From the sequence record PP175015.1: DNA of 64,000 bases. The stretch is one strand, 5' to 3'. This document shows, in pieces, positions 3,754-32,600 of the stretch. Position numbers and translations under genes: made by a program. Origin of the DNA: Escherichia phage UE-S5a. The stretch's first letter is position 1. Every line of letters begins with the position of its first letter. The notes beneath the pieces are model-generated. The model searched no databases, had not been told where the DNA came from, and saw only the letters and a program-made list of their open reading frames with translations.

Positions 3754-5335
3754 GTTAATTAAACAGGAACTGGATGAATGGCTGGACCAGGTGGACTACT
3801 CCCACCTTAATTCATCTAACTATGTTCCTAGTCAGTTTGCTCTTACCTTTGCCAACTTTATTAAGTTGGTTAATGGCAAAGAAGGTGAATCCAACAAAAC
3901 ACCTCCAGTTCACTTGAAGATGTTGGATAAGATGATTAGCCCGAACCAGTATGTAGTTAACCTGTGTTTCCGTGGTGCAGGTAAAACTGCTGTGTTCATG
4001 GAGTACTTTACTTTGTTCCTGGCAGTGTTTGGTCATTTACCAAGCCTGGGTAAGGTAGAAGGAATGATTTACGTATCTGACTCAATGGATAACGGTGCTA
4101 AGTCTGCACGTAAGAACATTGAGTTCCGTTACAAGAATAGTGAGTTCCTTCAGCAATGGATACCTGAGGCTACATTTACAGATAACCTTCTGGAGTTCCG
4201 TAATGTAGAAGGACATCGACTTGGTGTTAAGTTGTTTGGTGCTAAGACAGGTCTTCGTGGTACGAAGATATATGGTAAACGTCCAACACTCTGTGTACTG
4301 GATGACTTGATTAGTGATGGTGATGCTAACTCCAAGACAAGCATGGAAGCTATTAAGGATACCGTCTATAAAGGTGTGAACCATGCTCTTGACCCAACCC
4401 GTCGTAAAGTAATTTTCAATGGTACTCCCTTTAATAAGGAAGACATTATCATTGAAGCAGTTGAGTCTGGTGCATGGGATGTCAACGTATGGCCTGTATG
4501 CGAGAAGTTCCCCTGTAGCAGGGAAGAATTTCAGGGTGCATGGGATGACCGTTTCTCTTATGACTATATCAAAGCCCAATACGATATGGCAGTTAAGACG
4601 GGTAAGCTGGCAGGCTTCTATCAGGAACTTATGCTTCGTATTAGTTCTGAAGATGAGAGACTGGTTCAGGATAGTGAAATTAGGTGGTATAGCAGACAAC
4701 AACTATTAAGGATGAAGTCCTGCTACAACTATTACATTACAACTGACTTTGCTACTTCGGAGAAACAGACCAGTGACTACAGTGTCATTTCAGTTTGGGC
4801 TTATAGTTCTAATGGAGATTGGTTCTGGGTTGATGGTGTGGCTAATCGTCAGCTTATGGATAAAAACTTTGATGACTTATTCCGTCTGGTTCAGGAATAC
4901 CAACCACAAAATGTTGGGGTCGAAACCACAGGTCAACAAGGTGGATTCATCTCACTCCTTCAAAAAGAAATGATTAACCGTAATGTCTTCTTTAACTTTG
5001 CATCCTCTGAAGGTGGTAAGCCAGGCATACGTCCTGTAACCTCTAAGCTGTCACGCTTTAACCTGGTAGTTCCATGGTTCAAAGCTGGTAAGATGTACTT
5101 CCCGGAAGAGTTGAGAGATTCAACTATTATGGGTTTGTTCATGGGCCAGATTAAATTAGCTACCATTAATGGAATCAAAGGTAAGGATGACTGTATTGAT
5201 ACTATCTCTATGCTGGGTTATCTCAATCCCTGGAAACCACAGGCAGGTATGACTATGGTGGATAACAAGGGTGACCCGATGTGGGACGATGAAGAAGAAG
5301 ATAGTGTTAACCCCCTACGTTCATATATTGTGTGA
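3746..5335 (+). CDS. terminase large subunit
   Basis: ORF 3725..5335; Walker A-like RGAGKT, ATPase plus nuclease architecture of about 530 aa; likely start ATG 3746 (MSELIKQ) with GAGGA RBS. Confidence 0.8.
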   Translation: MSELIKQELDEWLDQVDYSHLNSSNYVPSQFALTFANFIKLVNGKEGESNKTPPVHLKMLDKMISPNQYVVNLCFRGAGKTAVFMEYFTLFLAVFGHLPSLGKVEGMIYVSDSMDNGAKSARKNIEFRYKNSEFLQQWIPEATFTDNLLEFRNVEGHRLGVKLFGAKTGLRGTKIYGKRPTLCVLDDLISDGDANSKTSMEAIKDTVYKGVNHALDPTRRKVIFNGTPFNKEDIIIEAVESGAWDVNVWPVCEKFPCSREEFQGAWDDRFSYDYIKAQYDMAVKTGKLAGFYQELMLRISSEDERLVQDSEIRWYSRQQLLRMKSCYNYYITTDFATSEKQTSDYSVISVWAYSSNGDWFWVDGVANRQLMDKNFDDLFRLVQEYQPQNVGVETTGQQGGFISLLQKEMINRNVFFNFASSEGGKPGIRPVTSKLSRFNLVVPWFKAGKMYFPEELRDSTIMGLFMGQIKLATINGIKGKDDCIDTISMLGYLNPWKPQAGMTMVDNKGDPMWDDEEEDSVNPLRSYIV

Positions 5336-5341
5336 GGAACC

Positions 5342-6052
5342 ATGCAAAAATTATCGGAAGTATACCGTGGCTTGGCACTAAGTACCTTGAAGGGTACTGG
5401 TGCAGTCACGGATGACAGATTGGGTATTGAGCCTGATAGTAAGCCTGAGATACTGGCAGCTATTAATGAAGGATTGGTTCGACTGCATAGTCGTTTCCCT
5501 CTCAGAACTAATAGTTGTATTGTGGAGATGAAAGAAGGGCGTACCGATTATCCTCTTCAATCCAGATATGCTTACTCCAGATTTACTAAGCCCACTCTTG
5601 AGGTTCAGTATCCATACATCATGGATGGGTTCATGAAACCTTTCCAGGATGATGTTATTAAAATCTTAAATGTATTTGATAACTCAGGGAACCGACGTAG
5701 ACTGAACGATGATTCGGACCCTCGTGCTATCTTCACTCCACGGCCTGATACTATTCAGTGTATGCGTCCTCGACACTTTGAGGCACTTAACGTAATGTAT
5801 CAAGCCAAGCACCCAGTGCTTACGGGTGATGAAGAACAGGAAGTTGATTTAGCTGATACGCTAATGACGGCACTTCATAACTGGGTGGGTTATCGTTACC
5901 ACACCGGTTTGAATACTCCGGAAGCTAACGCTAAAGCAGCAGAGCATCTGCAAACATATGAAAGCATCTGTGGTGAGGTTGTTGATTACGACCTGGCTAA
6001 TGGAAGTATTTCAATTACCGAAACTAAATTTGAACAACGAGGATGGCGATGA
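5342..6052 (+). CDS. hypothetical virion-associated protein
   Basis: 236-aa ORF inside structural operon between terminase and tailspike. Confidence 0.4.
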   Translation: MQKLSEVYRGLALSTLKGTGAVTDDRLGIEPDSKPEILAAINEGLVRLHSRFPLRTNSCIVEMKEGRTDYPLQSRYAYSRFTKPTLEVQYPYIMDGFMKPFQDDVIKILNVFDNSGNRRRLNDDSDPRAIFTPRPDTIQCMRPRHFEALNVMYQAKHPVLTGDEEQEVDLADTLMTALHNWVGYRYHTGLNTPEANAKAAEHLQTYESICGEVVDYDLANGSISITETKFEQRGWR

Positions 6053-9000
6053 ACGCACATACCCCCTTTGATGCAAATCAGGATTGGACCAATCCATATT
6101 GTCATAACAGTTCCAATGACCAAATGGTGGATGCACTGCTTGGTAATGCTTACCATGTGGTTCGTACTGTGTACTGCAACCTGGGTAATCTTAAACTCCT
6201 GTATGATTTCCTGAACCAGTATGGGATGGTCATCGGTGTAAACTCTGAAGAGGAATTGAAGGCATTATCCACGCAGGTTAAATATTCCCGTATCTACGGT
6301 TTCTCCCGTGCAGGTGACCGGCAGGTAACTGATTACTTGTACGTAGAAGGTGATCGTACTGGCATCATCCCAGATGACTCAGAAGCAACTGGTTCGTGGA
6401 TTACTGTTGCTACTTCTGGTTCCAATGGTGGTGGTACTTCTTCCAGTGAAGGTGCTTATATTCCTTGGGTATACAGCAATGGTTCTGCTACTGGTGGGGA
6501 AACCACAATCAACGTACCAGATGGTACGGTGGGTGTACCTTTCATTATTGTTAATGGCGACATGCAGTATGTAGGTCGTGGATTTGAGTTCAACGTAGAC
6601 AGCCTGTCCGTAACTCTGGCTCAACCTTTAGAGGAAGGAGATGAAGTAGTATTCCTTCTGACTGGTGTTCCTGCTGTACCGGATAATCCTAACATTAATG
6701 ACTGGATTCAGATCAATTGGTTGTACAACAATGGTGCTGCTGTAGGGGGTGAGCAGGTTATTGCTATTCCGTATACCTTCCAGTCTATTCCGGCTGTGTA
6801 TAAGAATGGTCTTCGTTTGTATAAAGGATTAACTACTGAGTCTTATACTGCTGACCCAGATAACCAACGTATTTTTCTTACCGAACCACTGACAACCAAT
6901 GATCGTTTGATAGTACAGATTGGTGGTGAAGCACGAGTATTGGAAGCAACAGATCGTACTCTACAGGAAGTGGCTCGTGCGGCTAATGTAAAAGATTCTG
7001 AGGTTATTCTCAGTACTAATACAGTACAATCCTTAAATAACAAAAAAGTTATTTATAATCCCGATAATCAGCAGATTTACGTTATTCCAGAATTACCAAC
7101 TAATGTGTATATATCCAGCGTAGTTGGTAATATCCTTACATATACTCCAGGTAACATTCAGGTTGAGTTACTAACCAAAAAAGAAACTGACCAAAATACC
7201 CTATGGCGTAATCAGGGAGATGTCCGTGGTTGGGGTGTTAAAGGGGACGCTGTGCATGATGATACAGTAGCATTAACGAACGTATTAAACGACACACCAG
7301 TTGGACAAAAGATTAATGGCAATGGGAAGACATATAAGGTCACATCCTTGCCTGATATTAGTCGATTCGTCAACACTCGTTTTGTTTATGAGCGTATTCC
7401 TGGTCAGCCGCTTTATTATGCCTCTGAAGAATTTGTTCAGGGCGAGCTTTTCAAAATAACGGACACCCCTTATTACAATGCGTGGCCACAGGATAAAGCG
7501 TTCGTTTACGATGATGTTATTTACTGCCCGTTCATGGCTAGTGATAGACATGGGGTCAGCAGGCTGCATGTATCCTGGGTTCGTTCAGGGGATGACGGAC
7601 AGACCTGGACAACGCCGGAATGGTTAACCGACCTACATCCTGATTACCCGACAGTTAACTACCACTGTATGAGTATGGGGGTGATGCGTAATCGTCTCTT
7701 TGCGATGATTGAGACACGTACTTTAGCATCTAACGCACTGGTGACCTGTGAGATATGGGACCGTCCTATGTCCCGTAATTACCATCCGACAGGTGGTATC
7801 ACAAAAGCCGCTAATCAGCCTGTGGCTGTAATTACTATTCCTGACCATGGATTGTTTGCCGGAGATTTTGTTAACTTCTCGAACTCTGGGGTGACTGGTG
7901 TTTCGGGGAATATGACTGTAACTTCAGTTATTGACCGCAACACATTTACTGTCACCACGCCAAATCAACAGGAATCTGACCAAAATAACTCTACCAAAGT
8001 CTGGCATATGGGGACATCGTTCCACCAGTCACCTTGGCGTAAAACCAACCTTGGACTGATTCCCATGGTTACCGAGGTTCACAGTTTTACCGCCATCAAT
8101 AATGATTCATTTATGATGGGATATCACCAGGGTGATGCTGCTCCACGTGAAGTTGGTATGCTGTATTTCCCGGATGCATTTAACAATCCTGGGCATTATA
8201 TAAAACGACGTATCCCTGCTGAATATGAGCCAGATGCGGCAGAACCCTGTGTTAAATATTTTGACGGTGTTCTTTATGTTGTAACCCGTGGAACTCGGTC
8301 GGATCGTCTGGGTAGTTCACTACATCGTAGTAACGATTTGGGTATATCCTGGCAATCATTGAGGTTCCCGAATAATGTCCACCACTCCACCCTGCCATTC
8401 GCTAAGGTAGGAAACGAACTCATTCTTTTTGGAACAGAACGTGCGGACAACGAGTGGGAAGCAAACGCACCCGACCAGCGATATTTCAGTTCTTACCCGC
8501 GAACGTTTTACACACGAGTGAACTTAGACACCTGGAATCTGGATAATACTCAGTGGGTGAATATCACTGACCAGATATATCAGGGTGGCATTGTCAACTC
8601 TGGCGTTGGTGTTGGCTCAGTGGTTGTTAAGGATAGTTATATCTATTACATGTTCGGTGGGGAAGACCATCTGAACCCCTGGACATATGGAGATAACTCA
8701 TCGAAAGACCCATTCAAATCAGATGGTCATCCATCAGATTTGTATTGCTACAAAATGAAGATTGGTTCAGACAATCGTGTTTCCAGGGATTTCAGATATG
8801 GTGCTGTACCTGACAGAGCTGTCCCCGTGTTTTTTGATACAAATGGGATTCGCACTGTTCCTGCTCCAATGGAATTTACAGGAGATTTGGGTTTAGGTCA
8901 TGTGACCCTTAGAGCCAGCACCAGTAGTAACATTCGCTCTGAAGTTTTAATGGAAGGTGAGTATGGGTTTATCGGGAAATCTGTACCGACTAATAACCCA

Positions 9001-9696
9001 GCAGGGCAGCGCATCATATTTTGCGGGGGAGACGGAACCAGTTCTTCTACTGGTGCACAGATTACGCTTTACGGTGCGAGCAACACAGCTTCTCGCAGGA
9101 TAGTTTACAACGGAAATGAACATCTGTTTCAGGGTGCTGATGTTAAGCCTTATAACGATAACGTCATTGCGCTTGGTGGACCAAGTAACCGTTTCACCAC
9201 TGCATACCTCGGAAGTAACCCTATTGTTACTTCTAACGGGGAGAAGAAAACAGAGCCGGTAGTTTTTGATGATGCTTTCCTGGATGCCTGGGGTGACGTT
9301 CACTACATCATGTACCAGTGGTTAGATGCTGTTCAACTGAAAGGCAATGATGCTCGTATTCACTTCGGGGTTATTGCTCAACAAATTCGTGATGTATTCA
9401 TTGCACATGGTCTGATGGATGAAAACAGTACGAATTGTCGTTATGCTGTTCTGTGCTATGACAAGTATCCACGGATGACCGATACGGTATTTTCACACAA
9501 TGAAATCGTTGAACACACTGACGAGGAGGGTAATGTCACTACTACGGAAGAACCTGTATACACCGAGGTGGTTATTCATGAAGAGGGTGAGGAGTGGGGT
9601 GTTCGGCCTGACGGAATTTTCTTTGCTGAAGCCGCTTATCAGAGAAGAAAACTGGAAAGAATCGAAGCCAGACTTTCTGCTCTTGAACAGAAGTAA
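6049..9696 (+). CDS. tailspike / tail fibre protein with pectate-lyase-like beta-helix and C-terminal intramolecular chaperone (peptidase S74-like) domain
   Basis: About 1215 aa; GDVRGWGVKGD motif; C-terminal FDDAFLDAWGDVHYIMYQW...RIHFGVIAQQI chaperone signature; ORF track start 6043. Confidence 0.7.
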   Translation: MNAHTPFDANQDWTNPYCHNSSNDQMVDALLGNAYHVVRTVYCNLGNLKLLYDFLNQYGMVIGVNSEEELKALSTQVKYSRIYGFSRAGDRQVTDYLYVEGDRTGIIPDDSEATGSWITVATSGSNGGGTSSSEGAYIPWVYSNGSATGGETTINVPDGTVGVPFIIVNGDMQYVGRGFEFNVDSLSVTLAQPLEEGDEVVFLLTGVPAVPDNPNINDWIQINWLYNNGAAVGGEQVIAIPYTFQSIPAVYKNGLRLYKGLTTESYTADPDNQRIFLTEPLTTNDRLIVQIGGEARVLEATDRTLQEVARAANVKDSEVILSTNTVQSLNNKKVIYNPDNQQIYVIPELPTNVYISSVVGNILTYTPGNIQVELLTKKETDQNTLWRNQGDVRGWGVKGDAVHDDTVALTNVLNDTPVGQKINGNGKTYKVTSLPDISRFVNTRFVYERIPGQPLYYASEEFVQGELFKITDTPYYNAWPQDKAFVYDDVIYCPFMASDRHGVSRLHVSWVRSGDDGQTWTTPEWLTDLHPDYPTVNYHCMSMGVMRNRLFAMIETRTLASNALVTCEIWDRPMSRNYHPTGGITKAANQPVAVITIPDHGLFAGDFVNFSNSGVTGVSGNMTVTSVIDRNTFTVTTPNQQESDQNNSTKVWHMGTSFHQSPWRKTNLGLIPMVTEVHSFTAINNDSFMMGYHQGDAAPREVGMLYFPDAFNNPGHYIKRRIPAEYEPDAAEPCVKYFDGVLYVVTRGTRSDRLGSSLHRSNDLGISWQSLRFPNNVHHSTLPFAKVGNELILFGTERADNEWEANAPDQRYFSSYPRTFYTRVNLDTWNLDNTQWVNITDQIYQGGIVNSGVGVGSVVVKDSYIYYMFGGEDHLNPWTYGDNSSKDPFKSDGHPSDLYCYKMKIGSDNRVSRDFRYGAVPDRAVPVFFDTNGIRTVPAPMEFTGDLGLGHVTLRASTSSNIRSEVLMEGEYGFIGKSVPTNNPAGQRIIFCGGDGTSSSTGAQITLYGASNTASRRIVYNGNEHLFQGADVKPYNDNVIALGGPSNRFTTAYLGSNPIVTSNGEKKTEPVVFDDAFLDAWGDVHYIMYQWLDAVQLKGNDARIHFGVIAQQIRDVFIAHGLMDENSTNCRYAVLCYDKYPRMTDTVFSHNEIVEHTDEEGNVTTTEEPVYTEVVIHEEGEEWGVRPDGIFFAEAAYQRRKLERIEARLSALEQK

Positions 9697-9880
9697 TAAA
9701 CAAAACCATTTTGCCATTAAGTTGGTGGAGGGGTGGATACGGTATTAGTTATGAGAAATCTCCCGTACTTAAGTGTGCATTTCTTCGTCGGCAATTGGAA
9801 AAATTTAAATAATCTTCCAATGTGTACATAAGGATATATTCGGCAAGGACGCCATTAACCAGAAAAACAAAGAGGTTCTT

Positions 9881-12235
9881 ATGAACGAAATGTTCTCACA
9901 AGGTGGTAAAGGCTCCACTGGTATTCTTACCAACAAACAAGCCATTGCCCGTAAGTTTGGTGTTAAGCAGAATGAGGTTGTTTACTTTGCTGTAGGTGTA
10001 GACTTAGGGGAATACAAGGTCATTTATGATAAGACTACCCAGCGAGCTTACTCATTACCTGCAGACCTTGGTTCAGGGGTTACTGCTGTAAGCCTTAATA
10101 CTGCCGGTGTGTTAGTTCACTCTACTGGTAATGTTGACCTGGGTGCACTAGCTGTTTCACGAGGAGAGTTTATAACAGTCCCTGGGTCCTTCTCTTTGGG
10201 TTATGAGATTAAAGTAAAGAATGAATGTCTTGAATACCAGGGTGGGTTGTATCGATGGGATGGCGCACTGCCAAAGGTTGTAGATGCTGGGTCTGTTCCT
10301 GATATTGGTACAGGAAAGTGGCTGAGCGTCGGTGATGCAGCCCTGCGCAGCCAGATTTCAGACCCGGATGGTGCGTCCAGTTACCCTGAATTGCAGATGG
10401 CAAGATGGCGTGATGAGGGTGATGTTCGAGGCTGGGGTGCTAAAGGGGATGGTGTAACAGATAGTACGGAGAATATAGCTGCTTCACTAAATTCTCAAAA
10501 AGCTGTCGTAGCATCAGACGGTGTATTCTCTAGTTCTGGTATTAATAGTAATTACTGTAACTTAGACGGTAGAGGCAGTGGTGTACTAAGTCACCGTTCA
10601 AGTACAGGTAACTACTTAGTATTTAACAATCTACGCTCAGGTCGCTTAAGTAATATTACGGTAGAAAGTAATAAGGCGACCGATACCACTCAAGGGCAGC
10701 AGGTATCTCTTGCTGGTGGCAGTGATGTTACTATAAGTGATGTTAATTTCTCAAACGTTAAGGGCGCTGGTTTCAGTTTAATCACATACCCTAATGATGC
10801 ACCCTCTGATGGGCTTATGATTAAAGGCATTCGAGGTAGCTACTCCGGCTATGCTACTAATAAGGCGGCTGGATGCATACATGCTGATTCCTCGGTTAAC
10901 TCCCTCATAAATAACGTCATTGCTAAGAACTACCCTCAGTTCGGGGCTGTAGAACTGAAAGGTACAGCCAGTTATAACATAGTCAGCAATGTTATAGGGG
11001 CAGACTGCCAGCATGTAACTTACAACGGTACAGAAGGGTCAATAGCTCCCTCTAACAACCTTATCAATGGGGTAGTGGCTAATAATCCTAAATATGCAGC
11101 GGTTGTTGCAGGCAAAGGTAGTACCAACTTAATCTCAGATGTGCTTGTAGATTTCTCAATCTCTGACGCTAGTCAGGCTCACGGTGTTACAGTAGAAGGC
11201 TCTGATAACGTAATAAGCAATGTGCTTATGTCAGGATGTGATGGTACTAACTCTTTAGGGCAAGCTCAAACTGCTACAATTGCGCGCTTTATAGATACAG
11301 CTAATAACAACTATGCGTCTGTATTTCCTAGCTACAGTGCTACAGGTGTTATTACTTTCGAATCAGGTTCTACCCGTAACTTCGTAGAGGTAAAGCATCC
11401 GGGAAGGAGAAACGACCTTCTCAGTGCTACTGGTACTATTGAAGGTGCAGTTACTATTGACGGCACTAGTAATAGCAACGTAGTGCACGCACCTGCCTTA
11501 GGACAGTACATAGGTAGTATGTCAGGTCGGTTCGAATGGCGGATTAAGTCCATGTCACTTCCGTCAGGCGTTCTTACCTCGGCTGATAAATACAGAATGC
11601 TTGGGGATGGTGCTGTGTCATTAGCTGTAGGCGGGGGTACTTCTTCTCAAGTTCGCCTATTTACTTCTGATGGTACTTCTCGGAAAGTATCACTCACCAA
11701 CGGTAACGTGCGTCTTCCTACCAGTAGCACAGGTTATTTGCAGTTAGGTTCTGATGCAATGACCCCAGATAGTACTAATACATACGCATTAGGTTCCGCA
11801 AGTAGAGCATGGTCTGGCGGTTTTACTCAATCAGCATTCACTGTTGTCTCAGATGCTAGGGATAAAACAGAGCCTCTTAATATCTCAGATGCTTTACTGG
11901 ATGCTTGGTCTGAAGTTGACTTTGTGCAGTTTCAGTACTTGGACAGGATTGAGGAGAAGGGTGCAGACTCAGCCAGATGGCACTTTGGTATCATCGCTCA
12001 GCGAGCTAAGGAGGCTTTCGAACGTCACGGCATAGATGCACATCGCTATGGCTTCCTGTGCTTCGACAGTTGGGATGATGTATATGAGGAAGATGCCAAT
12101 GGCTCTCGTAAACTGATTACACCAGCAGGTTCCCGCTACGGTATTCGTTACGAGGAAGTACTGATATTAGAAGCTGCGTTGATGCGGCGTACTATTAAGC
12201 GTATGCAGGAAGCATTAGCTGTTATGTCTAAGTGA
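9881..12235 (+). CDS. second tailspike (putative depolymerase) with C-terminal intramolecular chaperone domain
   Basis: 784 aa; RDEGDVRGWGAKGDGVTD beta-helix motif; C-terminal SDARDKTEP...LDAWSEVDFVQFQY...WHFGIIAQR chaperone signature; AAGAGG RBS. Confidence 0.7.
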   Translation: MNEMFSQGGKGSTGILTNKQAIARKFGVKQNEVVYFAVGVDLGEYKVIYDKTTQRAYSLPADLGSGVTAVSLNTAGVLVHSTGNVDLGALAVSRGEFITVPGSFSLGYEIKVKNECLEYQGGLYRWDGALPKVVDAGSVPDIGTGKWLSVGDAALRSQISDPDGASSYPELQMARWRDEGDVRGWGAKGDGVTDSTENIAASLNSQKAVVASDGVFSSSGINSNYCNLDGRGSGVLSHRSSTGNYLVFNNLRSGRLSNITVESNKATDTTQGQQVSLAGGSDVTISDVNFSNVKGAGFSLITYPNDAPSDGLMIKGIRGSYSGYATNKAAGCIHADSSVNSLINNVIAKNYPQFGAVELKGTASYNIVSNVIGADCQHVTYNGTEGSIAPSNNLINGVVANNPKYAAVVAGKGSTNLISDVLVDFSISDASQAHGVTVEGSDNVISNVLMSGCDGTNSLGQAQTATIARFIDTANNNYASVFPSYSATGVITFESGSTRNFVEVKHPGRRNDLLSATGTIEGAVTIDGTSNSNVVHAPALGQYIGSMSGRFEWRIKSMSLPSGVLTSADKYRMLGDGAVSLAVGGGTSSQVRLFTSDGTSRKVSLTNGNVRLPTSSTGYLQLGSDAMTPDSTNTYALGSASRAWSGGFTQSAFTVVSDARDKTEPLNISDALLDAWSEVDFVQFQYLDRIEEKGADSARWHFGIIAQRAKEAFERHGIDAHRYGFLCFDSWDDVYEEDANGSRKLITPAGSRYGIRYEEVLILEAALMRRTIKRMQEALAVMSK

Positions 12236-12312
12236 GTAATACTGGTACGGTTAGATCAGTAGAGTTGGTTAACAGTAGCCTACGTACTACCAGGCTATTA
12301 CTTATCTAGGTA

Positions 12313-12343
12313 TAAAACCCCGCTCAGGCGGGGTTTGTTTTTA
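12313..12343. terminator. bidirectional rho-independent terminator
   Basis: AAACCCCGC-tcag-GCGGGGTTT stem-loop followed by GTTTTTAT; A-rich on the other side. Confidence 0.65.
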
Positions 12344-12360
12344 TCTATTAATAATATTTC

Positions 12361-12987
12361 TTATATAGAGTTTACTGTTTGCATTGCCCTAATTGATACT
12401 GCTGTTAGGGTAATTACTTGTCCTGAGATATTAAACATACCTAACTGAATACCGTCTACCATGAAAGGGTCAGTTGAACCAAGTGTGTAAGTAGCCAGTA
12501 CGTTATCTCTGTTAGCAATGTCTGTACCCTGTACTTTAACACTAGCATCTGAACCTACTATCGTAATTCCATTGGTTCGTCTTGTTTGTGTTCTCCATTC
12601 CCTTGCTGTACCTGCACCACCTGCAATAATTCCTGATATACGAACACTGAACATTACCTGGGTATTCCTGGTTCTAATGGGGAACTTAAGATTTCCTTCT
12701 TCAATTGTTAGTGCTGCTGTACCTCCAGGTGATTTAGTTATCCCTGGTAATGAAAAGTAATTGAACCAGGATTGGTCATTTACTGCCTGGCTCCCGGTCC
12801 ATGTATACAAGTCCAGAAGAAATGTGTCTTCTAACTCTGTTGGTGGGAAAGGTAGTAGTTCTGGGGGGATCTCTGAGATGTTATTAGCAGAAACTATTCG
12901 TTCCCCATAACTTCCCACGACCAACAATCCCCCCTTCATTTTGCACACAACATCCCTACCACTTTGGAAAATATCTTTAATAGACAT
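12361..12987 (-). CDS. hypothetical protein encoded antisense to the structural operon (moron-like)
   Basis: ORF track 12361..13014 begins at GTG; ATG at 12987 has GAGGT RBS 7 nt upstream; Gly/Thr-rich beta-type 208-aa protein. Confidence 0.45.
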   Translation of the reverse strand: MSIKDIFQSGRDVVCKMKGGLLVVGSYGERIVSANNISEIPPELLPFPPTELEDTFLLDLYTWTGSQAVNDQSWFNYFSLPGITKSPGGTAALTIEEGNLKFPIRTRNTQVMFSVRISGIIAGGAGTAREWRTQTRRTNGITIVGSDASVKVQGTDIANRDNVLATYTLGSTDPFMVDGIQLGMFNISGQVITLTAVSIRAMQTVNSI

Positions 12988-13111
12988 AGTTACCTCGCAG
13001 TTGATACCAGACACTATGTCTGGATGTATCCCATCATACTAAGTATTATCTAAGAGTCATCTTATGATACGACCCTATTGGGGTTCTTAACTTTACAACT
13101 ACGGTAATATT

Positions 13112-13441
13112 ATGAATGAATCGGGCGAACTGCTTCTAGTCAGACTGGAGGAACGATTGAAGACTCTGTTTGAGAATCAGACGAGAGACAGACAGGACCG
13201 TGAGAAACTGGAGGAAACTCTGGGAGAATTACGGGATTCAATCAATGACATAGGCAATAGACTAAAAAATGTGGAGGATAGCTTAGCTAAGAATGAACCT
13301 ACTATTGAAGAGTTCATCACCATTAAGCATAAAGTTGTTGGTGCTGGAATTTTTGGTAAGTGGGTATGGGCTGGAGCAGGTGCAATTATTGGTGTATTGG
13401 CTGCTGCAAGACGGGAGATATTCGCATGGTTCGCAGGCTAA
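13112..13441 (+). CDS. coiled-coil protein with C-terminal transmembrane segment (lysis-associated candidate)
   Basis: 109 aa; charged helical N-terminus, C-terminal GAGIFGKWVWAGAGAIIGVLAAA hydrophobic segment; directly upstream of holin-like gene. Confidence 0.4.
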   Translation: MNESGELLLVRLEERLKTLFENQTRDRQDREKLEETLGELRDSINDIGNRLKNVEDSLAKNEPTIEEFITIKHKVVGAGIFGKWVWAGAGAIIGVLAAARREIFAWFAG

Positions 13442-17448: not shown

Positions 17449-18669
17449 ATGACTACGGAAGCTGCAACCACAGCTTCCGACATTCTCGCAATGTCGGATG
17501 ATGAGATTCTGAATATGGAAGCCCCAGCAGTTATCGCTGAGGAAGATACTTCCACTCAGAACAACCCAGAAACCAACGGCGTACAGACTCCTGATGAAGA
17601 AGTTGACCCCTCTGCTGTTGAAGACCTACCAACCGAAGAAACCTCCCCTGAAACCGAACCAGTTGAAGAAGATGCAGCAAATTCTTTAACTTCTGATAAA
17701 GTTGATGATAAAGTTGTTGACACAGAAGTTGATAGTAACGGTAAGCCGATTACTAAAGCTGAACCTTCTACTGCTGAACCCGGCCAGGAACAGAAAGAAG
17801 AAGGCAAACAGTCTGAAGGTCTGCCTGCTGACTTCAACTATAAGGAAGGTTATGAGAAGTTGATGGCTCCTTTTAAAGCTAACGGCAAAATGATTACTCC
17901 CCGTTCACCGGAGGAGGCCATTAGCCTGATGCAGATGGGTGCTAACTATACTCGTAAGATGCAAGAACTTCAGCCGTACCGTAAGGTAATGCTGATGTTA
18001 CAGAACAACGGTTTAATGGATGAGGACAAACTCTCTTTCCTGATTGACCTGGATAAGAAGAATCCTGAGGCCATTAAGAAGTTGCTCAAAGACTCTGGTA
18101 CAGACCCTCTGGACTTTAACCCAGATGAGGAAATTAACTACCAGGGTGGCAATCACCGTGTTACCGACACCGAAGCAGATTTTGCAACCGAAATTGACGA
18201 CTTAAAGTCTACTCAAGAAGGACAAGCTACATTAGGTGTTATTGGCTCGACATGGGATGCTGCCAGTAAAGATGCTCTTTATCAGAATCGTGGCTTACTC
18301 CATACGATTCACGAACAGCGTGAGAATGGTATTTATGACACCATTGCTAACGAAGTGAATCGTCTTCAGATGTTAGGTCAGATTCCGGTAGGTACTCCGT
18401 TTATTCAGGCTTATAACTACGTTGGTAATCTCCTTGCACAACAGGGAGCATTTAACCAAGTAGCTAAGCCTGAACCGGTACAAGCAGTTAAACCAGCGGT
18501 TCAGCCGGTAGTGCGTGTAGCACAACCTAAGCAGACTCTGGCTAACAACGAGCAAGCTAAAGCAGCTTCCCTTAATCGGGCTGCTACACGCAAAGCAACA
18601 CCTATTGTAAACCCACTCGCCATGAGTGATGAAGATTTCGCTAAACTCCCAGTACCGGGTAGTCTTTAA
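17449..18669 (+). CDS. putative scaffolding protein
   Basis: 406 aa, highly acidic Glu/Asp/Pro-rich N-terminus, immediately upstream of major capsid gene. Confidence 0.4.
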   Translation: MTTEAATTASDILAMSDDEILNMEAPAVIAEEDTSTQNNPETNGVQTPDEEVDPSAVEDLPTEETSPETEPVEEDAANSLTSDKVDDKVVDTEVDSNGKPITKAEPSTAEPGQEQKEEGKQSEGLPADFNYKEGYEKLMAPFKANGKMITPRSPEEAISLMQMGANYTRKMQELQPYRKVMLMLQNNGLMDEDKLSFLIDLDKKNPEAIKKLLKDSGTDPLDFNPDEEINYQGGNHRVTDTEADFATEIDDLKSTQEGQATLGVIGSTWDAASKDALYQNRGLLHTIHEQRENGIYDTIANEVNRLQMLGQIPVGTPFIQAYNYVGNLLAQQGAFNQVAKPEPVQAVKPAVQPVVRVAQPKQTLANNEQAKAASLNRAATRKATPIVNPLAMSDEDFAKLPVPGSL

Positions 18670-26630: not shown

Positions 26631-26694
26631 TTACACTGGCTTACTGTAGAGTAAGCTTTCCATATACGATATAAGTTTGAACAGGAAACATGCT

Positions 26695-29600
26695 ATGTCA
26701 ACATTTGACCGTCTGGCAGGTTTCGCAGACAGCATCACTAATGCTAAGCAAGTCGATGTCTCTACTGCAACCTCTCAGAAGCAAGCTGCACAAGGGCAAA
26801 GCCCTTTCCAATTAACCCCAGAGAATGCTTACAATCTCCAAACTGGTCGTGTAGGTAATCTTGGAATCGGTGCATTCGAACCAGGTTCACTTCAGGCAGA
26901 TTTCACTCAAGCCTCCCCATTAGAAATTCTTAATAAATACGGTAATGAGCAAGGTCTACAGATTCTTAATAGCCGGGCTAATGCTGCTGATGCTGTACGT
27001 CAGGACTTATCTAAACAACGTACTAACGCAGAAGCATTTGGTGATACTCTTTCTGGTGTTGGTCTTGGTGTTGCTAATACCCTTGGGGGCATTGCTGCTC
27101 TTGGCACAGGTCTGGTCAATGATAATGCCGGGGCATCCATTGCTTCCGGTATGGATTGGCTGAATGAAGGGGTACACAATCTACAGTCTGATGCTCTGAA
27201 TGCTACCCGTAAGGTTGTTCAGAATCAGAACCAGATTTCTGCACAAAAGAACCAGAGACTCTACGAAGAAGATATTAAAAATGGTGAGAACGATTTAGTT
27301 GCCTCCCTGTCTCGTATTGGTCGTGATGCTTTTGATTCTGTTGCTAATACACTTAATAATGGTATGGCTGCTACTGATGGGCTGAGTGAAGGTGTTGGTT
27401 CTCTCTTTACCGGTGGTCCATTAATTCGTGGTGTATCTGCACTCGGTAAAGTAATGGTAGGTGGTGATAAAGCTGTTAAGGGTATTACCTTAGCTGCTGA
27501 GTTAGGTTCACGTCCTGCACAGGTTGCATTGTCTGCTGGTCGTGTTGCTGCACCTGCTATTGCAATTGGTGGTATGGAAGCTGGTGGTGCATACCAACAG
27601 ACTGCTTCCGAAATCATGAAGATGTCCCATCAAGAATTGGCAAGTAAGTCTCCTGTTTATCAACAGCATATCGCTGATGGTTTATCTCCTGATGAAGCAC
27701 GTCGCCAAACTGCATCTGAAACGGGTATCATTGCTGCTGGCTTAACTGCTCCGGTTGCTGCTGCTACTGGTCCTCTGGTATCCAAATTTGAACTTAACCC
27801 ACTTAAGGTAGGTTCGCTGGCTGGTGCTGGTTCTAACATGCTACGTGAAACAGTAGAAGAAGGTATTCAGTCTGGTACAAGTCAGTTTGCACAGAACAAG
27901 GCAATTCAGGGTAATGTAGATGCTAAGCGTGATTTGCTTAAAGGTGTCGGTGAGCAAGCAGGTCTTGGTGCACTCTACGGCTTCGGTAGTGCTGGTGTTG
28001 CTCAGGCTCCAGGTACAACTGTTAAAGCTGTTGGTGCTTCTGCTGGGCCTGCTTTACGTACTACTCTGGCTGGTGCTTCTCTGGTTGGTAGTGCATTAGC
28101 AAAAGCTGCCTCTCCTATTACTAACATCCTGGTTCAGCGTGGCGAAGAAGTTGCTAAGCGTAATGAACAAGCTTCCCCTGTATCTGATGCTACGGTTAAT
28201 GCTGCTGCACAAGAAGCTACTGCTCAAGCAGAACAAGCACAAGCAACTGTACAAGAAGCAGTAGATGCAATGGATATTTCTCCTGAAGATAAAGCTGCTG
28301 CTACTCAGTATGCTGCTGACTTAACTCAGGCAATGAAATTTGACCCAGTAGAACTGGAACAAGCTAACCCAGCAATCCGTGAAGCTGTTTCTGGTTCCAC
28401 TAACCGTGTTGAAGCTATTCAGAAGATGGCTGACCTGGTTAATACTGCCGAAGACCCTAACGTTCAAATGGAAGCTGCAATCCAGATGTATGACAACATC
28501 ATGTCTATGGATAGCTTCATTAACCGTGATCCTGGTGCTTTAGCTAATCTGGAACAGGGTTCTCCTGCTGCTAATATTGTTGACCAGTTCTCCGGCCTGA
28601 TGGCTAACGTTCAGAATACACCAAAGGTACTTCGTGCATTCCGTGCCATCCATTCTATGATTCAGGAACAGGCTGAAGCAGGTAAACTGAAAGCTACCGA
28701 AGAAGCTAACCAAGCCCAAGCAAACAACATTGCTATGGCTGCTGATATGTCTCCAGAAGTACTGGATGCAGACTCAGTGAACATGGTTCTGAAACATGCA
28801 AGTGAAGGTAAGATTACACTGGGGAATCGTCAGCGTGCTGCCCTGCAATCTGCTGCTGCTCTATTGCAAGGAGCACGAGAATTTGACGCTAAAGCAGAAG
28901 AACTAGGCTTACGTCCTCAAGACATTGTTAGTAAACAGATTAAAACCGACGAGTCTCGTTCTAATGAAGGTCAGTACTCTGCGTTGCAACATGCTAAACG
29001 CATTCGTTCTGCGTACAACTCTGGTAACTTCGATTTGGCTTCCGCTTACCTCGACGACTTTATGAAGTTCGCCCAGCACATGCAGAATAAGGTCGGAGCG
29101 TTGAATGAGCATCTGATTTCTGGGAATGCGGATAAGAATAAGTCTGTCCATTATCAGGCTCTTACTCCCTCCCGTGAATGGGTACGTAGTCGTACTGGTC
29201 TTGGTGTTAATCCGTATGATACCAAGTCGGTTAAGTTTGCCCAGCAAGTAGGACTGGAGGCCAAAACCGTAGCTGATATTGCTAACGCACTTGCTACGGC
29301 TTACCCGGAGCTTAATGTTTCTCATGTGAAGGTTACTCCATTAGATTCACGTCTGGACAAGCCTGCTGCCCAGGTAGTTAAAGAGTTCCGTCAAGGTGGT
29401 CTTGATGCCACTCAGTCTCAACAGACCAATGAACCAGTGAATCAGGTTGATGAAACTCCTGCACCAGCGCAAGAGACTACTACTACTGTACAGCCTAAAG
29501 CTAAACCAGTGGTAGAAAATAAGACTGTTCCTGTTAAAGAGGCTAGTTCAAAAGCAGAAGAAGTCTCTACTACTAAGTCTGAAACAGTAGATGCTACCCT

Positions 29601-32600
29601 CACCAATGAGGATACCACTCAAAAAGTAGCTGAAACTAAAACGGAAATGGAAACAGTTTTCCCTGTCTATAACAATGACAAGACACCGAACCAGTTCCTG
29701 AAATCATTTACCCTGCCGGAAGAACCTAAGTCTCGCACCATTGGTTCTGAATCCCCTTTGACTGATATTAAGCAAGCACTGTCTTCTACTGCACGCTTTG
29801 AAGCATTCACTCAAAAAGAAAATAACGCTCTCACAAGTGATGTGATTAAGCGTTATCAGGACTTAATGGGCTTTGGTGAAACTCTGAAGACTACTCTGTC
29901 TGATCGTCTGGCTAAGTTTCTTGCTAATAAGAACGTTGGTAAACGCTTTGCAGAAGGCACAGAGGCTAACCGTTGGGTAGGTGGTAAGTTACTTAATATC
30001 GTAGAGAAAGACGGAGACACCTTTAAGTTCAATGACCAGTTGTTAGAGACTGCTGTACTTGCTGGTCTGCAATGGCGACTGACTGCTACACAGAATGCTG
30101 CTGTTAAAGACATGAAAGATGTAGCTGCTATTACTGGAGTAGAAGCATCCTTGTTACCTGAAGGTATCCTGGCTGAATTTGAGAATGCTCAGACTCTGGT
30201 TGAAGCTACTAACTCACTGGCTCAAAAGATTGAATCTTACTGGGGATTGAATCGTAATCCTAATGCACCACTGGGTTATACCAAAGGTATTCCAATGGCA
30301 ATGGCTACAGAGATTCTGTCTTCTCTCATTGAGATGGGTGAAGTTAAAGAGTCTATGCTTGATGTGTCTGAGATTGACCCAGACTCTAATAAGACCGTCG
30401 GTCTGTATACCATTGAGAAGCTGGATGATAACGATGCCATTAACAAGTTCCCTACTGCTATCGAGGAAGCTGTTCTCGTAGAACCAGAAGAGAAAATGTA
30501 CTTTGGTGATGATATTCCTTCCGTGGCTCAAACTCAGTTACGTAACCCTGCTGTTAAGAATACCCCAGAGCAGAAAGCTGCTCTTAAAGCAGAACAGGCT
30601 ACCGAGTTCCGTGTACACATGCCGATGGTTAACTTCTATGAAGCATTAGGTCGTGACAACATTCTGGAACTGATGGGTGCTGGTACTCTTAATCCTGAAC
30701 TGCTGAACGTGAACACTGCTAAGTCACTGGAGGGTAAAAACCTGTCAGTGTCTATGGCATATGATTCCCTGTTCGGTGTAATCAACCAGTTACAGGAACA
30801 GGAGAATGGTCTGGATACGCCTATTCACTATGGTTACAACATGACCCGTGTAGGTCGTATGCAGATGTTAGGTAAGAACAACCCACAGTCCAGCAAGCTG
30901 GTTCGTGAAGCAATTCTGCCAACCTTCTCTACTATCGACTTAAGTAATGAAAACAGTCAGACGTTCTCTGATTTCCAGTTAGGTCTGTCTCAGGCATTAG
31001 GTATCAAGGTTCATAATATGTCCCGTGAAGCTATGTCTGAAAAACTGACCAAAGCTCTGGAAGGTAATTTGAAACCTGCTGTTGATATGATGGTTGAGTT
31101 TGATAAGTCCGGGCACTTACCAGCCGATGCAGTAGATATTCTTAAGACATCTCTGGGTGGTGATAAATCATTCGTAGCTCTTATGGCTCTTATGGAGTAT
31201 GCCCGTTACCTGAACAGTGATGACCGTGCCAACTTTAATACCCCACTGTACGTTGAAGCCGATGGTGTAACCAACGGACCAATCAACGCAATGGTATTAA
31301 TGACTGGTGGTAAGTTCACTTCAGACTGGATTAAGAATACTGCTAAAGGTGGTCTGTTCTTCGGTAAAGCTGGTAAGACTATGAATGAACATCGTTCACA
31401 GGATGACAGTGTTGACCTGTATGAAGCATCTACCAATGGTCTGCAACAAGCACTTAATGAGTTACGTACTACTTACCGTAACAACGTTCCGGTTATGAAC
31501 CAAATGAATCATCTTCAGAAGTTAATGGACCTGTTTATTAAAGACTTTAACCTGAATGAAGACGGTACTCTGGACCTGAAACGTGGTATCGCTAAAAACC
31601 CACTGACCATTACCATCTATGGTTCAGGTGCTCGTGGTATTGCTGGCAAGATGGTTAGTGCAATTACTGACACCATCTATGAACGATTCAGTGATGTTCT
31701 GCAAGCTCGTGCTGCTGACCCTAGCATTTCCCCAGCTATGGCAATGTTTGGTAAGGAGGCTGCGTCTGAGGCTGATGCTCAGGCTATGCTGGATACTTTC
31801 CTTACTTCTATGGAAGCACTGACTGGTAATGTTCCAGTTATGCGTAAAGGTGAATTGTCTATTCAACAGGTAGAAGGTGCTCTGACTGGTAAGTTAGACC
31901 CTCAGAAGTTTACCGTATCGGGTAATGCCCTGAAGAACTTACAAGAGAACATGCTTCACCTGTTCGTTGAACCAATGCGTACTGGTATCCGGAATACTGT
32001 TGGGGAAGGTCTGATGCATTCTACTGAGAACTTGCAGAAGGCTACCCAGATTCAGTCTTTGGTTCTACAAGACATGTTCCAACAAGCAGTACAGGCTAAG
32101 CTGGCAGAAAAAGAAAAAGACCCAACCTGGAAGAAGGGTGATTTCTTAACACAGAAAGAACTGAATGAAATTCAGGAATCATTGTCTCCACTGGCTCCAA
32201 TGATTGAGACTGGTTCACAGACTTTCTATATTGCTGGTAGTGAGAATACTGATGTTGCTAACCAGGTACTGGCTACCAACTTAGATGACCGTATGCGTGT
32301 GCCAATGAGCATCTATGCTCCTTCTCAGGCAGGCGTTGCAGGTATTCCATTTATGACCATTGGCACTGGTGATGGCATGATGATGCAGACCCTTTCTACT
32401 ATGAAAGGTGCTCCGAAGAATACCCTGAAAATCTTTGATGGTATGAACATTGGTATCGACAACATCACTGATGCAAGTCGTAAAGCTAACGAGGCTGTAT
32501 ACACTTCCTGGCAGGGTAACCCTATCAAGAATGTTTATGAGTCTTTTACTAAGTTCATGAAGAACGTAGACTTCAGCAAACTATCGGATGAAACCAAACA

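Follow-up and report, generated by a model that had tools for sequence, protein, structure and literature searches.

Tailspikes carried on other tailspikes have been described in phages vB_EcoP_G7C, hereafter G7C (gp66 and gp63.1; Prokhorov et al. 2017), Moo19 (gp82) and B2 (gp48 and gp49), all of which feature anchor or docking modules homologous to those reported here. In G7C, gp63.1 binds the XD3 domain of gp66 (PMC8825819), and the two B2 proteins were purified together and the structure of their complex was solved (PMC11654681). Spikes of these three phages terminate in O-antigen esterase or other heads, and lack chaperone domains. Two tailspikes have been described as common in Gamaleyavirus (PMC11990801), the genus of G7C.

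Other relevant systems differ in the way in which capsule depolymerases are mounted. The SP6-like phage K1-5 encodes a K5 lyase (gp46) and an endosialidase (gp47); both enzymes are found on one virion, and each ends in a C-terminal chaperone domain (PMC5380687). In K1-5, both spikes are held by an adaptor protein distinct from them, to which each attaches through a short N-terminal peptide. The K1F endosialidase gp17 (endoNF; 1V0E, 3GVL, 3GW6) has a T7-gp17-like N-terminus, and the N-termini of KflA and of Kayfunavirus K5-lyase tail fibres (e.g. AN24P4; PDB 9VVR) are either T7-gp17-like or SP6-type. CBA120-type Ackermannviridae, among which YX22, are myoviruses with four spikes on the baseplate, equipped with XD branching and TSP1-like docking domains. 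In these the endosialidase is a secondary (docking) spike.

The window analyzed, a stretch of 64,000 nucleotides, matches at 100% identity Escherichia phage UE-M3, an N4-like podophage (Gamaleyavirus, Schitoviridae). Two consecutive ORFs separated by 184 bp, each with a GDVRGWG-x-KGD motif and a chaperone signature, had been reported in a preliminary description of this DNA, and all these features are confirmed (Table 1). ORF1 and ORF2 correspond to UEM3_010, labelled 'endosialidase', and UEM3_011, labelled 'K5 lyase', and encode full-length products of 134-kDa and 84-kDa, respectively. Both have been detected by mass spectrometry in purified UE-M3 virions (Virol J 2025; PMC11927229). The tailspike pair is therefore already known, as it was correctly named in the deposit and the proteins were found in virions. 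As a case of modular tailspike swapping it is ordinary and already published, and a branched design with two spikes is usual for the genus. ORF1 residues are numbered from the ATG at 6043; the ATG at 6049, annotated as the start in GenBank as well as in the preliminary description, is favoured by a GAGG at 6039-6042, and numbers decrease by 2 if it is used. The order TerL, gp67, gp66, gp63.1, lysis genes is common to UE-M3 and G7C.

Table 1. Features of the UE-M3 tailspike locus (positions in the window).
Feature	Residues	Positions	Strand	Remarks
N4 gp67-like virion structural protein ('adaptor')		5342..6052	+	directly upstream of ORF1; phrog_2125
ORF1, tailspike 1		6043..9696	+	likely start at the second ATG, 6049
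ORF1 N-terminal module, G7C gp66-like	1-391	6043..7215	+	phrog_12242
GDVRGWGVKGD motif, ORF1	392-402	7216..7248	+
Putative endosialidase body, ORF1		7240..9231	+	Pfam PF12218, PF12217, PF12195, PF12219
ORF1 C-terminal intramolecular chaperone domain	1064-1217	9232..9693	+	Peptidase_S74; 3GW6 E 3e-180
Intergenic spacer, 184 bp		9697..9880	+
Kayfunavirus gene-17 3' flank		9697-9739		within spacer
Apparent decayed chaperone-domain C-terminus		9738-9812		within spacer; YGISYEKSPVLKCAFLRRQLEKFK, then stop
Conserved 5'UTR/RBS of gp63.1-type gene		9855-9880
ORF2, tailspike 2		9881..12235	+
ORF2 N-terminal docking module	1-~165	9881..10375	+	like G7C gp63.1, CBA120 TSP1, B2 gp48
GDVRGWGAKGD motif, ORF2	180-190	10418..10450	+
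Putative K5 (heparosan) lyase body, ORF2	184-656	10430..11848	+	beta-helix, then triple-stranded beta-helix
ORF2 C-terminal intramolecular chaperone domain	657-784	11849..12232	+	Peptidase_S74; 3GUD, 3GW6
GC-rich hairpin terminator closing the tailspike operon		12315..12336	.	faces a reverse-strand gene

The locus most plausibly encodes a host-recognition module built on the G7C plan, in which a gp66-type spike with an endosialidase head carries a gp63.1-type spike with a K5 lyase head; to this reading we assign a probability of about 0.87. Homologies, conserved residues, synteny and mosaic breakpoints were observed; from these we infer that, in UE-M3, both enzymes are active, ORF2 docks on ORF1, the chaperones cleave themselves off and host range is affected. 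Solved structures at 86-95% identity cover all parts of the two proteins.

The ORF1 N-terminal module is 84% identical to Bp4 orf11 and, over aa 1-388, 69% identical to G7C gp66. It comprises a virion anchor and two tandem T4-gp10-like XD branching domains (~aa 127-306), followed by a TSP-N (D1)-like domain at aa 308-377. Structural counterparts are Moo19 gp82 (9D80_D, E 6e-149) and B2 gp49 (9D83_D, E 1e-135); aa 127-210 match also the CBA120 TSP4-N structure 7RFO and the KP32-type branching domain. An internal DNA repeat (6467-6496 and 6719-6748) is found in the same module. From the GDVRGWG motif, where the crossover lies, to the C-terminus, ORF1 is 86% identical to K1F gp17, and the two agree in domains, in catalytic residues and in the site of cleavage; the closest endosialidase is the YX22 spike (93%), which is set on a TSP1-like N-terminus. 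In UE-M3, unlike in Ackermannviridae, the endosialidase is borne by the primary, anchoring spike.

The endosialidase body is made of an N-terminal extension (aa 400-465), a six-bladed beta-propeller (aa 466-907) interrupted by a beta-barrel insert (aa 577-659), and a triple-beta-helix stalk (aa 910-1063). It matches four endosialidase Pfam domains (among them PF12217, the propeller, E 4e-205; PF12219, E 3e-78; PF12195, E 4e-42), and the endoNF structures 1V0E and 3GVL align to aa 398-1063. The beta-helix core earlier attributed to ORF1 is hence not borne out. Glu581, Arg596 and Arg647 (and His350) are reportedly the active-site residues of the K1F enzyme; all four are conserved in ORF1 (H503, E734, R749 and R800 correspond to H350, E581, R596 and R647). 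By homology, ORF1 is probably an endosialidase of the K1F or endoNF/GH58 type, hydrolysing the alpha-2,8-polysialic-acid K1 capsule.

ORF2 is similarly composite. Residues 1-167 are 61% identical to G7C gp63.1, and the N-terminus matches the structures 4QNL (aa 1-160, E 2e-57), 4OJ5 (aa 1-204, E 2e-70) and 9D84_A (aa 1-167, E 5e-59), with PF18668 at aa 91-152. The rest is shared with K5 lyases. Identity to KflA aa 31-632 is 92.5% over 602 aa; 2X3H (KflA) matches ORF2 aa 184-657 (E 4e-278), and 9VVR is also matched. Identity to Kayfunavirus lyase genes is 93% at the nucleotide level, over a stretch that begins at ORF2 aa 146 and ends 16 nt beyond the stop codon. In contrast to all these lyases, the N-terminal 100-145 residues of ORF2 are of the gp63.1/TSP1 type. 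The SP6-type adaptor-binding peptide is absent from ORF2, as homology begins at KflA aa 31. KflA-type proteins fold as a beta-helix followed by a triple-stranded beta-helix (PMC8822698). ORF2 would thus be a KflA-type lyase, predicted to cleave the K5 (heparosan) capsule by beta-elimination. Pfam pectate-lyase and beta-helix models gave no match at E<=10 with the motif-containing segments of either protein or the ORF2 body, and the beta-helix was assigned to ORF2 solely via its identity to 2X3H. Of the two pectate-lyase-like beta-helices originally envisaged, the one in ORF2 stands as a beta-helix enzyme, the one in ORF1 is replaced by a propeller, and neither is pectate-lyase-like according to Pfam; with pectate-lyase-type tailspikes, only the GxKGDxxxD motif is common.

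The C-terminal regions of the two proteins are 30% identical (pairwise E 1e-26), and share the signature LDAW...HFGxIAQ (aa 1080/1107 in ORF1, 673/701 in ORF2). Peptidase_S74 (PF13884) scores 36.6 bits in ORF1 and 52.9 bits in ORF2, the gathering cut-off being 22. Self-cleavage relying on a serine and a lysine five residues downstream has been described for K1F and T5 pb1 (PMC4690869). Equivalents of K1F S911/K916 are conserved in ORF1, where cleavage is predicted at T1063|S1064, with K1069; the ORF2 dyad is formed by S657 and K662. Each chaperone domain would help trimerisation of its own protein, and then cut itself off at the conserved serine. Domain scores and dyads thus fit the proposal that both spikes end in a self-cleaving chaperone, a trait which sets UE-M3 apart from G7C, Moo19 and B2.

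In the assembled structure, the N-terminal ~390 residues of ORF1 would anchor the spike to the tail and supply the XD branching domains, the distal part of a gp66-type protein having been replaced by the K1F-type endosialidase. The N-terminal ~165 residues of ORF2 would dock on an XD domain of ORF1; which one is extrapolated from G7C. That one spike docks on the other had been suggested as a possibility from the DNA alone, and is well supported by the homology of the N-termini to G7C gp66/gp63.1 and B2 gp49/gp48, whose complexes were shown experimentally. The N-terminal anchors had also been regarded as unrelated to each other. This holds for the first ~300 aa of ORF1, which have no counterpart in ORF2, but not for ORF1 aa 308-377, which resemble ORF2 aa 20-90 (32% identity, E 2e-4). 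Such docking-like domains are consequently not exclusive to secondary spikes, and both spikes might be attached independently to the tail, for example through the gp67-like protein, with no ORF2-on-ORF1 docking. This arrangement is very improbable, however, as gp63.1 requires the gp66 XD3 domain in G7C, B2 gp48 and gp49 form a stable purified complex, and pairwise comparison found in ORF2 no region like the aa 1-125 anchor of ORF1.

With a branched spike of the G7C type, a single virion should be able to remove either capsule, K1 or K5, and homology to a polysialic-acid endosialidase and a heparosan lyase agrees with the dual-depolymerase host-range module proposed at first. The K1/K5 enzyme pair is the same as in K1-5, and has been assembled also on an N4-like scaffold. 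Modes of attachment differ, UE-M3 using gp66/gp63.1-type modules, and so does gene order, the lyase coming first in K1-5, the endosialidase in UE-M3. UE-M3 may be an N4-like phage that has converged on the K1-5 arrangement, if infection truly uses both capsules. The published isolation host is O25:H4, its K type not being stated, and UE phages lyse also K-12 laboratory strains. Evidently a K1 or K5 capsule is not obligatory for these phages, and a K1/K5 effect on host range is putative. Growth on acapsular strains and unreported host K types would also suit a phage that is effectively mono-specific, one enzyme being a non-functional passenger, to be compared with the second spike of K1E, a truncated remnant. 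We regard this as improbable: both ORFs are intact and full length, their identity to characterised enzymes is 86-93%, the residues needed for catalysis and for cleavage are conserved in the endosialidase, and both proteins are present in virions.

The GDVRGWG segment deserves separate consideration. ORF1 and ORF2 match at this site in pairwise BLASTP (E 1e-7), and the longest direct DNA repeat between the two genes is the same segment (51 nt at 82%). Differences are nearly all at synonymous third positions, and identity drops immediately outside the conserved residues; the DNA similarity is therefore attributable to constraint at the protein level, and recent gene conversion was rejected. The motif had been placed near the start of a predicted beta-helix, which is correct for ORF2 only.

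K1F-like DNA homology begins at 7218, exactly at the ORF1 motif, and homology to SP6-like K5 lyase genes at 10465, 15 nt past the ORF2 motif. Both enzyme cassettes thus have intragenic 5' junctions, at or adjoining the motif. For the endosialidase cassette, the 3' junction falls instead in the spacer, at about 9729-9739, adjoining the apparent chaperone remnant. In the related phage PBM-3, ORF1, spacer and ORF2 aa 1-134 are kept at 98%, and divergence starts only afterwards. The suggestion that the spacer acts as a recombination joint is accordingly right for one junction, but neither for the 5' junctions nor for the PBM-3 exchange. The wider scheme first put forward, tandem pectate-lyase-type beta-helix depolymerases exchanged through the spacer, may draw on this 3' junction, on the beta-helix of ORF2, and on the resemblance of the GAKGDGxTD-type motif to the cap opening many beta-helix tailspike domains (the neighbouring YX22 spike has FGAVGDGVTDDT). 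It is scarcely credible: the endoNF crystal structures match ORF1 and already refute it for this protein, and it is disfavoured by the failure of either protein to match Pfam pectate lyases at E<=10, by the intragenic 5' junctions, and by PBM-3, which exchanges the second enzyme leaving the spacer intact.

The breakpoints suggest, tentatively, that the GDVRGWG-x-KGD(G)VTD segment and the chaperone 3' end are recurrent crossover points for depolymerase cassettes among Schitoviridae, Autographiviridae and Ackermannviridae, the spacer being a scar that includes the last ~24 codons, decayed, of the chaperone domain of the displaced spike. Three independent junctions lie no more than 15 nt from the motif; at two loci, a 3' chaperone-gene remnant directly follows the incoming cassette. 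If the proposal is true, motif and chaperone 3' end effectively act as homology arms. The locus itself provides clean natural breakpoints, motif (5') and chaperone-domain end (3'), with which capsule specificity might be engineered; their practical value is modest.

What appears to be left in the spacer is the end, now decayed, of a displaced gene for a chaperone domain. A database-wide tblastn search with the 38-aa translation of the spacer gave, outside UE/PBM phages, only non-significant matches (E 1-9), so that the significance of the remnant rests on a pairwise shuffle test. Several of the matches in this E range sit at the 3' ends of tail-fibre or tailspike genes. A promoter and terminator scan detected neither sigma-70-like promoters nor terminators in the spacer, and no regulatory role is thus demonstrable for it. 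Two terminator-like matches given by the scan are located inside ORF2, and are not credible. In G7C, in contrast, a terminator hairpin separates the two spike genes. Hairpins have been annotated after both gp66 and gp63.1, and the one found downstream of ORF2 is their counterpart in UE-M3.

The two adjacent tailspike genes of phage UE-S5a, ORF1 and ORF2, are best explained, from the sequence comparisons described here, as encoding the components of a branched two-enzyme spike. In megablast, the interval 5300-13100 is 100% identical across the whole query to phage UE-M3 (PP301342.1), and 99.9% identical to the siblings UE-M6 and UE-S5b. UE-M3 is recorded as a sewage-derived Gamaleyavirus (Schitoviridae, Enquatrovirinae), an N4-like podophage infecting uropathogenic E. 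coli; a virion RNA polymerase ORF of 3456 aa at 26677-37047 agrees with the N4-like assignment. The locus was already annotated and published. ORF1 and ORF2 are denominated 'endosialidase' (UEM3_010) and 'K5 lyase' (UEM3_011) in GenBank, and mass spectrometry has found both proteins in purified virus particles (Virol J 2025, PMC11927229). The same paper compares them as receptor-binding proteins among four sibling phages, and does not discuss spike mounting or target capsules. The isolation strain is O25:H4, and K-12 strains are lysed as well (PMC11927229), which argues against a strict capsule requirement. The locus fits standard tailspike modularity, in a genus in which two spikes are the rule; only the pattern of crossovers centred on the motif and the apparent scar of a chaperone gene, both described below, are mildly new.

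Features and homology tracts of the tailspike region (ORF1 residues are counted from the ATG at 6043)
Feature	Position	Strand	Basis or remarks
ORF1	6043-9696	+	second ATG at 6049
ORF1 N-terminal module	aa 1-391		84% to Bp4 orf11; 69% to G7C gp66 aa 1-388
GDVRGWGVKGD	ORF1 aa 392-402 (nt 7216-7248)	+	shared with ORF2
Endosialidase N-terminal extension	ORF1 aa 400-465		Pfam
Beta-propeller	ORF1 aa 466-907		Pfam, E 4e-205
Beta-barrel insert	ORF1 aa 577-659		Pfam
Stalk	ORF1 aa 910-1063		Pfam
Peptidase_S74 chaperone domain	ORF1 from aa 1067		Pfam
ORF2	9881-12235	+	184 bp after ORF1
ORF2 N-terminal module	~165 residues		matches G7C gp63.1, CBA120 TSP1, B2 gp48
GDVRGWGAKGD	ORF2 aa 180-190	+	shared with ORF1
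Peptidase_S74 chaperone domain	ORF2 from S657		52.9 bits, above gathering; K662 five residues after
Homology to Bp4 (same genus)	TerL to ORF1 aa 327; 9861 to ORF2 aa 98; 12357 onward		89%
Homology to PBM-3	TerL through ORF1, whole spacer, ORF2 aa 1-134		98%; different enzyme beyond
Homology to K1F DNA	7218 (two bases into motif) to 9728		ends 32 nt into spacer
Homology to Kayfunavirus K5-lyase genes	ORF2 aa 146 to 16 nt past stop
Homology to SP6-like K5 lyase genes	from 10465		15 nt after ORF2 motif

For ORF1 the ATG at 6049, used both in GenBank and in the preliminary description, is more likely the start than that at 6043, because a GAGG (6039-6042) is found 6 nt upstream of it. The two genes are separated by 184 bp. 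Their motif segments match at E 1e-7 in BLASTP, and their C-termini, both of which contain LDAW and HFGxIAQ, align at 30% identity (E 1e-26). The features initially noticed are hence real and far beyond chance, and the interpretation given to them is half right. The motif copies are 82% identical at the DNA level. Recent conversion between them was considered and rejected, as this value is expected where the amino acids are conserved and third codon positions can vary freely.

ORF1 features four endosialidase-specific Pfam domains, in order. Residues 398-1063 align end-to-end with the K1F endosialidase (endoNF) structures 1V0E and 3GVL, and residues 943-1217 with the stalk-plus-chaperone structure 3GW6. 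Identity is 86% with K1F gp17 aa 235-1064, and 93% with the endosialidase tailspike that YX22, a phage of the Ackermannviridae, carries. The key residues of endoNF (H350, E581, R596, R647) are all conserved, as H503, E734, R749 and R800, and so is its cleavage pair S911/K916, as S1064/K1069. Because of the domains, the structural matches and the conserved residues, the ORF1 catalytic core is assigned as a six-bladed beta-propeller, and not as a beta-helix of the pectate-lyase type. The N-terminal module matches the solved N-termini 9D80_D (E 6e-149) and 9D83_D (E 1e-135), which are Moo19 gp82 and B2 gp49, respectively (PMC11654681). Residues 127-210 also match the XD3 region of CBA120 TSP4-N and the KP32-type branching domain. 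A 30-nt repeat within the module (6467-6496, WVYSNGSATGGE; 6719-6748, WLYNNGAAVGGE), with copies 252 nt (84 aa) apart, reflects two tandem XD (T4 gp10-like) domains.

ORF2 is 92.5% identical to the K5 (heparosan) lyase KflA (Y10025) across 602 residues, which start at KflA aa 31 and extend to its end. Residues 184-657 match the KflA crystal structure 2X3H (E 4e-278), and residues 102-784 match 9VVR, a full-length tail spike of 843 aa. KflA, whose substrate is the K5 polysaccharide (PMC5380687), is a trimeric beta-helical protein continuing into a triple-stranded beta-helix (PMC8822698). The beta-helix assigned to both spikes is thus retained for ORF2, and gives way in ORF1 to the propeller. 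Since neither protein matches Pfam pectate-lyase or beta-helix models even at E<=10, the label pectate-lyase-like fits nothing beyond the short cap motif GxKGDxxTD, a canonical form of which, FGAVGDGVTDDT, opens an unrelated YX22 spike. The proposed dual depolymerase and self-cleaving chaperones are both borne out by these homologies. The ORF2 N-terminus matches G7C gp63.1 (4QNL 1-164, E 2e-57; 61% identity), CBA120 TSP1 (4OJ5, E 2e-70) and B2 gp48 (9D84_A, E 5e-59). The two N-terminal anchors had been described as unrelated, which is not completely so: ORF1 aa 308-377 is similar to ORF2 aa 20-90 (E 2e-4), as G7C gp66 306-445 is to ORF2 20-145, and the primary spike holds a copy of the D1-like domain seen in the ORF2 N-terminus.

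Gene order in UE-M3 (TerL, gp67-like protein, ORF1, ORF2, lysis genes, portal) is shared by G7C (gp68, gp67, gp66, gp63.1, gp63-60, gp59). According to the summary of Prokhorov 2017 in PMC8825819, G7C gp66 and gp63.1 assemble into a stable complex with two branches; gp63.1 cannot bind without the XD3 domain of gp66, and of the two XD domains just one is necessary. The phage B2 anchor gp49 was expressed and purified together with gp48, and the structure of the pair was solved as a single complex (PMC11654681); two tailspikes are described as the usual arrangement in Gamaleyavirus (PMC11990801). Because both partner modules are kept at 61-69% identity, docking of ORF2 on ORF1, already suspected, is well supported by homology. 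An ORF1 trimer anchored to the tail would bear the endosialidase head, and an ORF2 trimer docked on the ORF1 XD domain would bear the K5 lyase head; each chaperone domain would aid folding and then cut itself off at the conserved Ser, by the mechanism reported for K1F and T5 pb1 (PMC4690869). The pair functionally resembles the spikes of K1-5, a phage that infects both K1 and K5 strains with the same two enzyme types, mounted on an adaptor protein (PMC5380687). The mounting is not that of K1-5, because the ORF2 N-terminus is not of the KflA/SP6 type.

Three independent junctions each lie no more than about 15 nt away from the motif, which separates the mounting modules from the enzyme heads; the 5' joints are found inside the genes, outside the spacer. 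A further junction is seen in the Kayfunavirus AN24P4 (L006 1646-3685), in which 96% identity to K1F extends until 11 nt beyond RGWGAKGD, and is followed by a K5-lyase cassette with its own stop. K1F homology then resumes as a dead remnant, the final 214 nt of gene 17, which is 97.7% identical to window 9483-9739. With a K5-lyase cassette in place of the endosialidase, this K1F-like phage exemplifies a clean natural K1-to-K5 specificity swap.

The spacer had been proposed as a possible recombination joint; this is partly supported, for the 3' side only, and the spacer is not the main joint. A scan of the spacer found no sigma-70-like promoter and no terminator. A CCCCGCTTCGGCGGGG hairpin follows each spike gene in G7C, but only ORF2 in UE-M3 (12315-12336). 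The first ~40 nt of the spacer correspond to the Kayfunavirus gene-17 3' flank, and the last ~25 nt to the conserved leader of gp63.1-type genes; the middle is found in UE and PBM phages only. Translated from 9738, one of the six frames gives YGISYEKSPVLKCAFLRRQLEKFK-stop, which can be aligned to the C-terminal end of the ORF2/KflA chaperone domain (YGIRYEEVLILEAALMRRTIKRMQ) with a score of 53 (z 8-9), reached by 0/300 shuffles; the other five frames gave background scores in the same test. The first 21 nt of this frame are 86% identical to ORF2 12137-12157. As a database-wide tblastn of the peptide is not significant, the case rests on the pairwise shuffle test, and we infer, short of proof, that the spacer is the scar of a recombination event. 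An incoming endosialidase cassette would have crossed over at its 3' side close to where a resident chaperone-domain gene ended, and the last codons of that gene would have stayed behind and decayed; AN24P4 offers a parallel.

Some annotations in the region and in relatives deserve comment. In PBM-3, the true endosialidase (L002 4750-8397), 99% identical to ORF1, is named 'tail spike protein', and the second spike (L002 8582-11260) 'endo-N-acetylneuraminidase'. The latter is related to ORF2 in the N-terminal docking domain alone, and its similarity to ORF1 is limited to the C-terminal chaperone region (41.6% over 190 aa); the two names look swapped. The UE-M3 names 'tail needle protein gp26' (13112-13441) and 'tape measure protein' (17449-18669) look like pipeline carry-over in a podophage. 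The former product matches unknown-function PHROGs only, and the two correspond to the N4 gp63 and gp57 homologues of Bp4 and G7C. Between the tailspikes and the lysis cassette lies a 217-aa gene (12361-13014, - strand), named 'tail needle knob' in UE-M3, whose product matches phrog_17779 (unknown function). It is found in Bp4 (orf14, 92% nt), and is absent from PBM-3 and G7C. Because a 79-aa C-terminal remnant of this gene adjoins the YX22 endosialidase gene on its 3' side (L005 6469-6708, - strand), the cassette of YX22 is suggested to derive from a Gamaleyavirus-like context. The region 3' of ORF2 that includes the terminator hairpin (12314-12586) is 83-86% identical to YX22 6422-6694 and 11437-11574, each downstream of a different tailspike gene; 3' flanks shared in this way may move along with tailspike cassettes, or help to direct the exchange of such cassettes.
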